A stretch of DNA of 26,934 nt from Thermodesulfovibrionales bacterium (GTDB lineage Bacteria; Nitrospirota; Thermodesulfovibrionia; Thermodesulfovibrionales; CALJEL01), in contig DAISHO010000001.1 in the NCBI GenBank assembly GCA_036822495.1, positions 1 through 26,934 of the forward strand, read 5' to 3'. Positions within the stretch are counted from its first letter, which is position 1. Each line of letters begins with the position of its first letter. Of the stretch, positions 6,026-8,406 are shown piece after piece. Made by a program: the position numbers and the translations under genes. Below the pieces are notes generated by a model. The model was not told the DNA's origin and made no database searches. It saw only the letters and a list, made by a program, of their open reading frames with translations.

Positions 6026-6044
6026 CATGTTATAATATAACATG
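6026..6044. promoter_or_regulatory. Palindromic bidirectional extended -10 element CATGTTATA-A-TATAACATG
   Basis: Perfect 9-bp inverted repeat. The + strand reads TGtTATAAT-N5-ATG(6042) and the - strand reads TGtTATATT-N5-ATG(6028). A second TGtTATAAT lies at 6008-6016. Confidence 0.55.
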
Positions 6045-7745
6045 AAGTTCAGCTTAACCGTAAAGTTTCTCCTCCTGACAGGTCTTCTTCTTACAGCATG
6101 CCTTGGTATCTCCTTTTATACCATTGCAAGACATCAGGAAGGCTTGATCCTTGAGCAGGCTGAGAATGAGGCAAAGGCAATCTTCCGACAGATTATCCTC
6201 ACAAGAAAATGGGTAGCAGACCACGGAGGTATCTTTGTAGAGAAAAAACCTTGGCTGAGACCCAACACCTATCTTTCACAGATAGGAGAGGAATCAGAGA
6301 TTATGGATGTTAAAGGCAGGATCCTTATAAAAGAAAATCCTGCCTTTGTAACAAGAGAACTCTCACGCTACGCCAGAGAAAAGGAGCTTTACTGGTTCAA
6401 GATCACAAGCCTCAAACTTATTAATCCTCTTAACGCACCTGATGAATGGGAAAGGAAGGCCCTCAGGGAATTTGAGGTCTCGAGTAAAAAAGAGTTAACA
6501 GCCTTCCAGAACATAGAGGGCCAGAGATATCTGAGATTTATATCCCCACTCTATATAGAAGAATCGTGCCTTCAGTGCCACGCAAAACAGGGCTATAAGA
6601 TAGGTGATGTGCGGGGAGCTATAAGTATCACCATACCTGTGGAAAAGATATTTACTGAGATAACCGAAAACAGAAAAAGGATGCTCATTGCAGCAGTTCT
6701 TACAATATCCGCTCTGCTTATCGCCCTTTACATCCTCATAAACAGGATTACCCTTTCACCCATCAGGAAACTCAAAAATGCTATGAGGTCCTTCTCAGAA
6801 GGAGAAACACCCTCAGCAGAGTTTATCAAAACAGGCGATGAGATAGAGGACCTTGCAAAGGCTTTCTCCCAGATGGCAGAGAAACTCACAGATTATCACA
6901 ACTGCCTCCATGACAGAATAAGGTCAGCTGTTAAAGAACTTGAAGAAACGAATAGAAAACTCATAGAAACGAACAAACTGCTTAATGAGGCGAATAGAAG
7001 AAAATCTGACTTTATCGCAAGGGCATCCCATGAATTAAGAACACCCCTCACCTCTATTAAAGGAGGCCTCGATTATCTCACACAGAAGTTCACACGAGTT
7101 AGTGATGAAAGTAACAGTTCAGGAATCAACCAGGGAGACCTCGAATTTATCCAGATGATAAGGAGAAATACAGAGAGGCTCATCAGACTCGTTAATGACA
7201 TGCTTGATATAGAGAAGATTGAGTCAGGACTTCAAGAACTCCATCTCAAAGAGTCAGACCTTTCAGCCATTATTAAAGAAAGCGTTGAATGTTTTAGACC
7301 ACAAGCAGAGGAAAAAGGTATCAGATTTTCTCTGGATATTGTCCATCCCCTGCCATGCATTGTTGATGAAGACAGAATTAAACAGGTCTTTACAAATCTT
7401 ATCTCCAATGCCCTAAGATGGACTCCCTCTGCCTCTGCAATAGAAATCTCAGCAAAAAGGAGAAATGGTGAGATCATATCTGAGATAAAAGACAGGGGCC
7501 CGGGCATACCACCTGATGAGCAATCAAAGATATTTGAAAGATTTTATAAAAAATCAAGGGATGGAACTGGTCTTGGCCTTACCATTGCAAAAGGTATAAT
7601 AGAGGCTCATGGTGGAGAGATCGGAGTGATAAGTGATGGGAAAAATGGAACCACCTTTTATGTGAGGTTAAAGGCTCATAATGACGAAGATAATGGTCAC
7701 AGGTCAAAAGGCTATGAAGACAAAACCACTCTTACTCGTTGTTGA
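6042..7745 (+). CDS. Sensor histidine kinase with periplasmic heme-c (DUF3365/Tll0287-like) domain, HAMP, HisKA and HATPase
   Basis: 567 aa, two TM helices. Periplasmic ITSLKLINPLNAPDEWE and CLQCH (CxxCH); HAMP (DEIEDLAKAF); H-box SHELRTP; N-box NLISNA; DRGPGI; GTGLGL. Confidence 0.92.
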   Translation: MKFSLTVKFLLLTGLLLTACLGISFYTIARHQEGLILEQAENEAKAIFRQIILTRKWVADHGGIFVEKKPWLRPNTYLSQIGEESEIMDVKGRILIKENPAFVTRELSRYAREKELYWFKITSLKLINPLNAPDEWERKALREFEVSSKKELTAFQNIEGQRYLRFISPLYIEESCLQCHAKQGYKIGDVRGAISITIPVEKIFTEITENRKRMLIAAVLTISALLIALYILINRITLSPIRKLKNAMRSFSEGETPSAEFIKTGDEIEDLAKAFSQMAEKLTDYHNCLHDRIRSAVKELEETNRKLIETNKLLNEANRRKSDFIARASHELRTPLTSIKGGLDYLTQKFTRVSDESNSSGINQGDLEFIQMIRRNTERLIRLVNDMLDIEKIESGLQELHLKESDLSAIIKESVECFRPQAEEKGIRFSLDIVHPLPCIVDEDRIKQVFTNLISNALRWTPSASAIEISAKRRNGEIISEIKDRGPGIPPDEQSKIFERFYKKSRDGTGLGLTIAKGIIEAHGGEIGVISDGKNGTTFYVRLKAHNDEDNGHRSKGYEDKTTLTRC

Positions 7746-8406
7746 TGATGACCCCGACATACTCAGGGTTCTCAAGGCAAATCTCGAACTGAATGACTTC
7801 AGCGTTATGACTGCTGACTCCTGTAATTCTGCAAAGGGTCTTTTTGAGGAAAAAAGGCCTGACCTCATTATCCTGGATATTATGTTGCCCGACGGTGATG
7901 GCATCGAAGTCTGTAGAGAGATTAGAAAGAGCCACCCAGAAATCCCTGTTATCATGCTGACTGCCAGGGATAAGCTGTCCGATAAGGTGATTGGCCTCGA
8001 AAGTGGTGCTGATGACTATATTGTAAAACCCTTCGAGACCCTGGAGCTTATTGCAAGGATAAAGGCATGTCTTAGAAGAACAAAGCCAGCACAAAAAGAA
8101 GAGATATTAAAGATAGGTAATCTTATAATAGATCGAAAAAAAATGGAGGTAAGAAAGAATGGCAGGCTCATCGAACTCACTCCCAAACAGTATAACCTTT
8201 TAGTACTTCTTGCTCAAAATCGTGATAGGGTAGTGACAAGAAAAGAGTTAAAGAATCAGCTCTGGGAATCAGATAAGATCTATTCCTGGAGCAGGGTCAT
8301 TGATGTTCATATAATGCATCTCAGGCAAAAGATAGAGGATAATCCTGCTGAGCCAGAATATATAATAACAGTGCCCGGTGTGGGATATAGATTTAGGTCA
8401 GAATAG
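7714..8406 (+). CDS. OmpR/PhoB-family response regulator
   Basis: VVDDD, IILDIMLP (phospho-Asp), MLTA, KPF and a winged helix SRVIDVHI...TVPGVGYRF. ATG 7714 is preferred to 7681. Overlaps the kinase 3' end. Confidence 0.95.
   Translation: MKTKPLLLVVDDDPDILRVLKANLELNDFSVMTADSCNSAKGLFEEKRPDLIILDIMLPDGDGIEVCREIRKSHPEIPVIMLTARDKLSDKVIGLESGADDYIVKPFETLELIARIKACLRRTKPAQKEEILKIGNLIIDRKKMEVRKNGRLIELTPKQYNLLVLLAQNRDRVVTRKELKNQLWESDKIYSWSRVIDVHIMHLRQKIEDNPAEPEYIITVPGVGYRFRSE

Follow-up and report, generated by a model that had tools for sequence, protein, structure and literature searches.

A heme c-motif sensor kinase and an OmpR-family regulator predicted to control nitrate and nitrite reduction genes in Thermodesulfovibrionales

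Gene content of the locus

The window (the whole stretch of DNA analysed, 26,934 nucleotides from a Thermodesulfovibrionales bacterium) contains genes for a sensor histidine kinase and a response regulator, followed by a convergent group of nap-type genes headed by an octaheme nitrite reductase gene, onr (Table 1). The regulator ORF opens at 7681 (7681–8406), with a probable start at 7714 from comparison of orthologues. Its receiver with a phospho-acceptor Asp and its winged-helix Trans_reg_C domain place it in the OmpR/PhoB family, but it scored 218.8 bits against the PhoB equivalog TIGR02154 (cut-off 296.2) and is not classed as PhoB; a separate PhoB-like gene is present on contig C6. Kinase and regulator share one transcription unit.

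The initial annotation had pointed out that this pair ends 1 bp from napD. The single base (8407) is there but carries no evidential weight; as evidence of an operon it was rejected, as regulator and napD are convergent, not co-transcribed, and separated in relatives by anything from 0 bp to >1 kb. Linkage on a larger scale is conserved: the pair lay no more than 13 kb from onr/nrf/nap-type genes in 25 of 40 regulator-carrying genomes, in convergent, upstream or divergent layouts. The claim that the usual Nar, Fnr or NsrR-type regulators are lacking stood for the window ORFs scanned, although its list of regulators had omitted NrfS-NrfR. Elsewhere, the genome has five Crp/Fnr genes and two Rrf2 genes, and no NarX-type sensor domain scored over the cut-off.

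Table 1. Features of the kinase–regulator locus and its predicted target operon
Feature	Position	Strand	Basis or remarks
Sensor histidine kinase	6042..7745	+	TM1 - sCache_heme - TM2 - HAMP - HisKA (His330) - HATPase; 567 aa
Periplasmic sCache_heme (DUF3365/Tll0287) domain, kinase residues 31-210	6132..6671	+	PF11845; model pLDDT 90.1
NPAFVTREL, kinase residues 99-107, start of helix probably facing distal heme side	6336..6362	+	Alignment; putative distal-ligand role
CLQCH heme c attachment motif, kinase residues 176-180	6567..6581	+	Cys and His invariant in aligned domains
OmpR/PhoB-family response regulator, Response_reg + Trans_reg_C	7714..8406	+	Asp55 phospho-acceptor (counted from 7714)
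napD-like chaperone, last gene of target operon	8408..8647	-	PF03927
napH-like membrane ferredoxin	8649..9542	-	TIGR02163, below cut-off
napG-like ferredoxin	9529..10278	-	NF007012, below cut-off
Long NapA-like periplasmic nitrate reductase, 1109 aa, Tat signal	10391..13720	-	Best families NF010055/TIGR01706, below cut-off
Small secreted monoheme protein, CINCH, choice-of-anchor V domain	13731..14213	-	Profiles and motif
Octaheme cytochrome c nitrite reductase-like protein (onr), first gene of target operon	14274..15938	-	PF02335; 7 CxxCH + 1 CxxCK
Predicted extended -10 element TG-n-TAATAT, 12 nt past last repeat	15987..15995	-	Fixed-offset conservation
Predicted regulator binding array, four TTWAC-type direct repeats, spacers 6-5-6, upstream of onr	16005..16041	-	

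Sensor domain and heme motif

The kinase matched the Tll0287-like profile PF11845 at residues 36–199 (E 5.9e-27), together with HAMP, HisKA and HATPase_c. Fold comparison of the modelled sensor domain gave Tll0287 (5B82) as the top match (Z 14.6, rmsd 3.6, 138 aligned), and 3B42 and 3B47 were among the top Foldseek matches. The periplasmic CLQCH in a DUF3365-like domain, as first described, was thus confirmed by the profile match, and both Cys and the His of CXXCH were invariant in 85 of 85 aligned DUF3365 domains. It also holds that the periplasmic domain has no further Cys; the only other one before the second hydrophobic helix, C20, sits inside the first (the two span approximately residues 3–29 and 211–241). 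Maturation genes matching PF01578 were found in the genome, and the sensor is predicted to carry a covalent heme c.

The kinase resembles Cluster 2 of the sCache_heme family (bioRxiv 10.64898/2026.02.01.703092; 10.64898/2026.05.25.727664) in its PF11845 domain with CXXCH in the insertion before the last strand, in an extracytoplasmic Cache fold flanked by two membrane helices and in fusion to a signalling output (HAMP, HisKA, HATPase). The cluster is further defined by Asp/Glu at position 101 and Arg/Lys/His at position 85, in a numbering whose reference is ambiguous; D134, the same residue in all 33 orthologues, lines up with residue 101 of Tll0287, and K120 (H/K/N in orthologues) with residue 87 and not 85. 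The Cluster 2 member that has been characterised lacks a kinase domain and passes its signal on to a Ser/Thr kinase, whereas the protein here is itself a histidine kinase. The main text of the family paper makes no mention of nitrite, nitrate, NrfS or Desulfovibrio and assigns no regulon (bioRxiv, sCache_heme).

A further observation, that NPAFVTREL lacks a Met, was borne out. Where this kinase has V103, 47 of 49 other DUF3365 domains have Met, but none of the 33 kinase orthologues does, so that across the alignment the absence is real and diagnostic, although in 20 of the 33 the preceding residue (F102 here) is Met. Placing V103 at the distal side of the heme is probable at best, because alignments from PDB sequence searches missed the region that holds the known distal ligands. 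Two other residues were rejected as distal ligand: M88, the single periplasmic Met, is unconserved (Met in 5 of 33 orthologues), and H61, present in 31 of 33, is also common in other DUF3365 domains and belongs to a DHGG motif in the first helix. The kinase has no evident distal protein ligand, like the NO-binding receptor of Pseudomonas azotoformans. Met loss is not specific to nitrogen oxides, since it extends over a wider lineage (2 Met among 77 rows) and the sensor clade includes a member, L012, adjoining a thiosulfate-reductase-like enzyme.

Repeat array and promoter upstream of onr

The predicted binding array (TTWAC-6-TTWAC-5-TTNAY-6-TTWAC) matched once in the window and not at all in 100 shuffles, and falls within 15940–16080, the interval that the initial annotation had named for EMSA. 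The -10 box formed no part of the search pattern; nevertheless, TAnnnT occurred at the exact -10 offset in 48 of 63 distinct array sites and at any other scanned offset in at most 6 of 63. A generic sigma-70 scan upstream of onr detected no canonical -35/-10 pair, as expected of an activator-dependent promoter, and around the kinase the same scan gave nothing above chance. A matrix trained on six sites from other families ranked the onr site first of 4,557,834 genome positions. Second was the promoter of the genome's only NIT-domain gene, encoding a nitrate/nitrite (NIT) chemoreceptor; it may be a target peculiar to this strain, or its short contig may have been mis-binned, since a PF08376 search found no such gene in five of five congeners.

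Distribution of the array across the order

Among genomes of the order, 32 of the 40 that carry the regulator have the array, as against 2 of the 111 that lack it. The difference persisted in the 110 genomes outside the set used to define the array (19 of 26 versus 2 of 84) and among genomes having a target-type gene (30 of 35 versus 1 of 57); Fisher values for these comparisons overstate the association because the genomes are kin. The same genomes carried both array and regulator within family f9 (8/15), family f11 (3/14) and genus g20 (2/7), and a reversed-pattern control matched in 0 of 151 genomes. Where the regulator is missing, the array was absent from 12 of 12 regions upstream of the corresponding genes.

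Nearly all fetched sites (28 of 30) lead into onr, nrfH, napA or an octaheme gene. Regardless of which version of the enzyme a genome has, the array lies before onr, nrfH, napA or Hao-like genes; it stands before unrelated first genes and is kept where the pair sits on a different contig. As a sequence pattern, it tracks the regulator and not the enzyme. In three genomes (G037, G095 and G072), the pair and a nitrite-reductase-type target occurred with no NapA match, and in G037 and G095 also with no Nar-like match; because formate dehydrogenases dominated the search for short NapA at E 1e-45, it was read from its top full-length matches alone.

The strict array was missing in 8 of the 40 regulator genomes, including five with spacing variants and one (G065) with only two clear repeats; in G123 and G130, both without it, no target was found. 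Conversely, G105 and G265 have the array and no regulator was found there. With a loosened pattern, control matches equalled real matches in G130 and nothing matched in G065 or in the genomes of L005, L006 and L012, so that the archaeal relative is not shown to have the array.

Comparison with other systems

How bacteria without NarX/NarQ decide on nitrate respiration to ammonium is poorly known. NarX/NarQ-NarL/NarP has a comparable role, a membrane kinase and regulator activating nap and nrf, but uses a four-helix heme-free nitrate-binding sensor, a LuxR-type regulator and inverted heptamers, none of which occurs here; the pair has neither a PilJ/NarX-type sensor nor a LuxR-type regulator. 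A non-Nar heme sensor for nap/nrf does have a precedent in NrfS-NrfR. Excerpts of two reports describe this system as two-component control of nrf and nap genes in Desulfovibrio vulgaris and D. desulfuricans (PMC5701242, PMC6456213); the excerpt of PMC5701242 has NrfS activated by nitrite and states its signal to be unresolved.

A contig that carries the tandem NrfR sites known from the literature encodes, divergently from nrfHA, a kinase with PF11845, CLRCH and an NPAYMSR helix. In length (874 aa) and match range, this kinase agrees with B8J208 of D. desulfuricans in the sCache_heme dataset. By these matches, the Desulfovibrio NrfS sensor carries the same heme-c-motif domain, and in both systems an sCache_heme sensor kinase is linked to nitrite/nitrate reductase genes. 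However, NrfS has the hybrid architecture, including receiver and HPt domains, and no HAMP match, while the kinase here has HAMP and no hybrid domains; NrfS keeps the Met that is Val here. NrfR belongs to the sigma-54 enhancer-binding proteins and recognises a 16-bp site, in contrast to an OmpR-family Trans_reg_C protein without Sigma54_activat and four direct repeats at a predicted sigma-70 promoter. Aligned with each other, the two kinases are 26 % identical, and a midpoint-rooted FastTree puts them on opposite sides. It is very likely that the pair does the job of NrfS-NrfR with a different DNA-binding partner.

The regulator shares the architecture of PhoB/OmpR-family proteins. PhoB binds direct repeats approximately 10–11 bp apart that end about 12 nt before the -10 element, and the array here is alike, except that its spacing is 6-5-6 and that of PhoB is uniform. 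Geobacter GSU0582/GSU0935, D. vulgaris DcrA and Tll0287 share the fold and covalent heme motif, but their distal ligands are Met or Cys, and they serve as chemoreceptors or stand alone and are not transcriptional regulators of respiration.

Regulation of the operon and nature of the signal

Conserved linkage and the co-occurring candidate site now give good support to control of the cluster by the pair, and the evidence for a link with nitrate/nitrite respiration goes well beyond adjacency. We favour, with some confidence, a dedicated two-component activator of dissimilatory nitrate/nitrite reduction that responds to nitrite or to NO made from it. Phosphorylated regulator would very probably bind the four repeats and activate the onr-nap operon and, in this genome, the NIT-domain chemoreceptor gene. 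It would sit on the repeats as head-to-tail dimers over the -35 region and activate sigma-70 transcription of onr-cytochrome-napA-napG-napH-napD.

If this regulon is correct, the signal is probably periplasmic nitrite, at the heme or via NO. Nitrite would bind to the heme on its open distal side, or be turned there or nearby into NO, and this event would shift TM2/HAMP and switch kinase activity; any effect of nitrate would be indirect, by way of basal Nap activity. Sensing of a nitrogen oxide by the heme is plausible and gains support from the shared sensor domain of the nitrite-responsive NrfS, whose ligand need not transfer, as NrfS keeps the Met and sits far away in the tree. Nitrite is favoured by the three genomes with a nitrite-reductase-type target and no NapA match, and nitrite or NO by the stable NO binding of a signalling-type family member without a distal protein ligand.

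With the same regulon, the heme could instead report periplasmic redox potential or oxygen, turning the operon on when the periplasm is oxidised or anoxic. This is unlikely, although an excerpt of PMC8396549 proposes GSU0582/GSU0935, structurally nearest after Tll0287, as redox sensors, and the thiosulfate-reductase-like neighbour of L012 would fit. The Geobacter switch proposed in that excerpt works by Met60 binding and letting go, and none of the 33 orthologues has the Met that is its likely equivalent; moreover, targets in the source genome are nitrogen-oxide genes only, with no array before its Nar-like cluster on C28 or other respiratory genes.

Marginally less probable is a sensor of free NO from any source that raises nitrite-removing capacity under nitrosative stress. 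The sole characterised signalling-type sCache_heme protein binds NO, releases it slowly and passes a signal across the membrane; in G143 and G247, the target operons include norCB-like genes further downstream, and G274 has nosZ as a target. Against this, no array was seen immediately upstream of a gene for NO detoxification, nitrite and nitrate reductases are the targets that constantly come first, and NO-type control in these genomes apparently runs via Crp/Fnr proteins with a different box.

The pair could also be a mere neighbour, with PhoB or another OmpR-family protein binding the array. Pair and operon are convergent, the generic half-site resembles the D. vulgaris Pho box, a 6-6-6 version of the array precedes PstS-like genes in three genomes, and 15 of 40 genomes have pair and targets on different contigs or no target seen. 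This reading is improbable: the array distribution fits this regulator and not the near-universal PhoB-like or BaeR/CpxR-like regulators (130/151 and 118/151 genomes), the 12 regulator-free upstream regions lack the array, and so does the pstS-like gene of this genome. Nitrate, the least likely candidate ligand, would make the pair a replacement for NarX/NarQ, which napA in most target operons (first in family f9) and the lack of a NarX-type sensor over the cut-off in this genome would suit, but nitrate is a poor heme ligand and carriers G037 and G095 have no detectable nitrate reductase, which leaves this the most improbable reading.

More broadly, and tentatively, covalent-heme Cache domains may be general nitrite receptors of anaerobes without NarX/NarQ. 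They would have been recruited at least twice: in Desulfovibrio NrfS, with sigma-54 output and the Met kept, and independently here, where a Met-less open-site heme would bind nitrite directly and an OmpR-type regulator would run a regulon of onr, nrfHA, a Hao-like reductase, two NapA types, nosZ and a nitrate chemoreceptor across several Nitrospirota lineages; a relative lies beside archaeal nitrate-reduction genes. The heme-c motif in NrfS makes the ligand question directly testable on proteins with and without the Met, and the array is a marker by which genes under nitrogen-oxide control can be predicted in uncultured Nitrospirota. The sCache_heme family, first defined in 2026, gains a concrete regulon, a candidate binding site and a cultured host, as Dissulfurispira thermophila is a cultured carrier (54 % identity; kinase BCB95915.1).

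Genes of the locus

Genome G000 (2.3 Mb in 452 contigs) carries the kinase-regulator pair on contig C1, the whole of which forms the window. Named homologues indicate the order Thermodesulfovibrionales of the Nitrospirota. A single base separates the ends of the regulator gene and of napD, which lies on the opposite strand; an operon there runs in the order octaheme nitrite reductase (onr), small monoheme protein, 1109-aa NapA-like protein, napG, napH and napD; the nap gene names are best family matches with scores under the curated cut-offs. The initial annotation had linked the pair to this cluster. 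That link is real and conserved and, through linkage, a candidate binding array and co-occurrence, is better supported than could be known from the window alone. Small genes akin to the nucleotidyltransferase and HEPN genes of the window are inserted between the regulator and napD at locus L002.

Features of the window and of other loci discussed in the text
Feature	Position	Strand	Remarks
Nucleotidyltransferase gene	5583-6008		Lone; immediately upstream of kinase
Sensor kinase, 567 aa	6042-7745	+	Two membrane helices flanking PF11845, then HAMP, HisKA, HATPase
OmpR-family regulator	7714 (probable start)-8406	+	32-nt overlap with kinase end
Small secreted monoheme protein	13731-14213	-	Lies between onr and long napA wherever a long-NapA cluster was seen; may donate electrons
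Octaheme nitrite reductase (onr)	14274-15938	-	8 heme motifs, one CxxCK
Candidate array TTAAC-6-TTAAC-5-TTAAC-6-TTTAC	16005-16041	-	Upstream of onr, in the gap after the AhpF-like fusion gene
AhpF-like fusion	16084-17730		Disulfide oxidoreductase plus thioredoxin reductase; kept upstream of onr throughout the genus
HEPN and nucleotidyltransferase-like pair	18070-18787		Past the thioredoxin reductase gene
263-aa protein	18849-19640		Internal heptad repeat (DEMSAFKNEMAAFK-like); no Pfam match; C-terminus like a nuclease-type domain, judged by eye
Second array (L179)	G000:C402:67-1543		Upstream of NIT-domain chemoreceptor gene
Copy of C402 (L180)	G000:C352:1-260		Near-identical promoter and gene start; suggests strain variation or duplicate assembly
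Periplasmic Nar-like cluster	G000:C28:3243-12246		Separate; type II DMSO reductase family; adjacent Crp/Fnr gene
Pair and Nar-like operon (G025:C91)	L082:8371-18431		Pair about 5 kb from periplasmic Nar-like operon with its own NarX/NarL-type system (PilJ, HAMP, GAF, HisKA_3)
Split kinase (G106:C26)	L165:283-4503		Kinase in two pieces; frame before napA starts with receiver-like N-terminus, as if a deletion or mis-assembly had removed regulator and array between the pieces
Related heme kinase, Ca. Hydrothermarchaeum profundi	L005:9971-17235		47 % over 298 aa, Val at 103 too; with regulator directly upstream of octaheme gene and napA; Nar-like beta subunit and bc-type genes on other flank
Array before HD-GYP protein	L241:352-1893		Protein has sCache_heme
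Array before second kinase	L170:95-1525		Kinase has sCache_heme
Hybrid kinase, D. desulfuricans-like nrfHA locus	L272:6075-8699		PF11845, CLRCH, NPAYMSR

Sensor domain and heme site

The kinase belongs to a known sensor family: in 2026 the DUF3365/Tll0287 domain was given a new definition, sCache_heme, as a Cache domain that carries covalent heme c. Its signalling-type members include many kinases; a Pseudomonas member without a distal protein ligand bound NO and released it slowly (bioRxiv 10.64898/2026.02.01.703092; companion 10.64898/2026.05.25.727664). The predicted model of kinase residues 31-210 (pLDDT 90.1) had Tll0287 as its best match (Z 14.6, rmsd 3.6, 138 aligned). The CLQCH motif spans residues 176-180 and, as the initial annotation had noted, inspection of the periplasmic part found no further Cys. 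The absence of a Met, noted there too, held up: at the position of V103, 47 of 49 other DUF3365 domains have Met but none of the 33 orthologues does, with three sequences of uncertain assignment (L005, L006 and L012) omitted from both groups. Met occurs at 102 in 20 of the 33 orthologues in the domain alignment. All but one of the sensor domains (32 of 33) fell in one starred clade (99/85), and all 33 together with L005, L006 and L012 formed a clade (100/98).

We infer that the family Met at this position is the distal heme ligand. Profile alignment placed Tll0287 residue 69 opposite kinase A101; the distal ligand of Tll0287 is Cys68. That of Geobacter GSU0935 is Met60 (PMC8396549). With no further periplasmic Cys in the kinase and the family Met missing, its heme probably has an open distal site.

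Linkage to nitrogen-oxide genes

An orthologue of the regulator was present in 40 of 151 genomes of the order, and the kinase in a nearly identical set. In 25 of the 40 genomes the pair shares a contig with onr, nrfHA, napA or an octaheme gene and lies within 13 kb of it. Three layouts were found: convergent, as in the window, directly upstream, and divergent (G037, G081, G072). The linkage was kept despite enzyme swaps, from long NapA (window) to short NapA with a tetraheme partner (G011) or pentaheme NrfHA (G037). In the remaining 15 genomes the pair was on a different contig or the target was not seen; some of these separations are assembly breaks (G004) and some are real (G017, G025, G033). 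The cultured Dissulfurispira thermophila carries the kinase at 54 % identity over 561 residues.

Candidate binding array

The array was the sole match to its pattern in the window, and 100 shuffles gave no match. The first comparison included 14 genomes with the regulator, and 12 of these had the strict array no more than 260 nt from the first operon gene; in the other two it was farther upstream (G034) or a spacing variant (G037). The 12 matching regions of regulator-free genomes had no such array, nor did three more regions from internal or unrelated operons. Across the order it occurred in 34 of 151 genomes (reversed-pattern control, 0 of 151). In counts that come from kin genomes and hence are not independent, it was present in 32 of 40 genomes with the regulator versus 2 of 111 without, in 19 of 26 versus 2 of 84 among 110 genomes unused in defining it, and in 30 of 35 versus 1 of 57 among 92 with a PF02335 or short-NapA gene. 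Within groups, array and regulator fell in the same genomes in families f9 (8/15) and f11 (3/14) and genus g20 (2/7). Of the two exceptions with array but no regulator, G132 has its regulator cut at a contig end; the regulator search of G105 found none. Eight genomes had the regulator without the strict array: five with spacing variants before the target (G037, G072, G084, G094, G095), one with two clear repeats (G065), and two in which a search for a target gene found none (G123, G130).

At 28 of 30 fetched sites the array led into onr, nrfH, napA or a Hao-like octaheme gene; two were uninformative. Of 63 distinct sites, 48 have a TAnnnT box, which is absent from the search pattern, 12 nt past the array; no other offset gave more than six. 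Such spacing of array and -10 box is the geometry of OmpR/PhoB-type activators, with the -35 region covered.

A matrix trained on six array sites of other families, applied to 4,557,834 positions of G000, ranked the onr site top (31.7 bits), followed by sites on C402 (30.8) and C352 (25.9), with the next at 15.3. C402 encodes the sole NIT nitrate/nitrite-sensing receptor of the genome; this target was sought in five congeners and not found. The array is absent from the Nar-like cluster on C28.

Specificity and probable alternative control

Other OmpR-family regulators of the genome are near-universal (130 and 118 of 151 genomes) and so cannot account for an array limited to 34. Control by Crp/Fnr is a probable alternative in genomes without the pair: an ATGAT-N4-ATCAT palindrome (up to three mismatches) was found in 6 of 12 regulator-free upstream regions versus 0 of 17 from regulator genomes, and Crp/Fnr genes adjoin two of the scanned regulator-free loci. 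The palindrome, upstream of onr, napA or nrfH at L099, L100, L102, L104, L108 and L109 and often near a Crp/Fnr gene, is a probable HcpR/Fnr-type box with a distribution complementary to the pair; G000 has 11 exact copies.

In a phylum sample of 301 genomes (225 outside the order), scanned with a looser pattern, the regulator was found in 11 of the 225 and the array in nine of those. Arrays accompanied truncated or frameshifted orthologues in G274 and G322 and no orthologue in G265; the three sites of G274 precede a Hao-like octaheme gene, a napA operon and a cytochrome c-nosZ pair. Several results argue against specificity: the looser pattern matched before PstS-like genes in three genomes (6-6-6 spacing), one EAL gene and non-respiratory genes in G319, and its reversed control was positive in 5 of 301 genomes. 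These off-target matches indicate that the half-site is generic and that the signal is carried by 6-5-6 spacing and context. In family f19 (L186-L188), the 6-6-6 TTAAC arrays that precede PstS-like genes are probably Pho boxes. An array search of the Ca. Hydrothermarchaeum profundi genome found none. The arrays before other sCache_heme genes (L241, L170) hint at a cascade of heme sensors.

Proposed mechanism and ligand

Around the observed domains, motifs, linkage, array and co-occurrence, we infer heme loading, regulator binding, activation and a ligand, most likely as follows. Heme c, for which maturation genes are present in the genome, would be attached to the kinase in the periplasm, and nitrite, or NO made from it, would bind the open heme site. 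The change would pass through TM2 and HAMP to His330 and on to Asp55 of the regulator, which would bind the four repeats and recruit sigma-70 polymerase. Transcription of onr first and nap second would let nitrite removal match nitrite production.

In three draft genomes (G037, G095, G072; 99-100 % complete) the sole target of the pair is of nitrite-reductase type, and the NapA search gave no match; a search of G037 and G095 for a Nar-like match found none either. Nitrite is favoured over nitrate because these genomes keep the system without a NapA match; it is also favoured over free NO, since none of the first targets is a detoxification gene.

Comparison with NrfS-NrfR

The window system is made of known parts and is a functional parallel of Desulfovibrio NrfS-NrfR, a sigma-54-dependent system that nitrite activates and that controls nrfHA, and probably nap as well (PMC5701242, PMC6456213, PMC12285233, PMC3333781). 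What it adds is a predicted site, a regulon, a cultured carrier (D. thermophila) and a testable link between NrfS and heme. In a literature search that covered few subscription journals and did not reach the original NrfSR paper, no description of the OmpR pair, the array or NrfS as a heme protein was found, and the parts consulted of a 2021 review of nitrate-sensing kinases are silent on NrfS and on heme sensors of this type (PMC8199190).

The sCache_heme dataset includes the kinase Q72EF6, whose accession is three away from that of D. vulgaris NrfA (Q72EF3); its one kinase for D. desulfuricans 27774 is 874 aa long. When metagenomes were searched with published tandem NrfR sites (PMC4641369), a single contig matched (L272). 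On it, nrfA-nrfH are divergent from the genes of a hybrid kinase, likewise of 874 aa, and of a sigma-54 regulator. The PF11845 domain and CLRCH motif of this kinase imply that the NrfS sensor is of the same kind as that of the window. However, NrfS retains the Met and has no HAMP match, whereas the window kinase has HAMP and Val103, and NrfS was distant from the window sensor clade in a quick, midpoint-rooted FastTree of 232 rows. This suggests that sCache_heme was likely recruited independently in the two systems.
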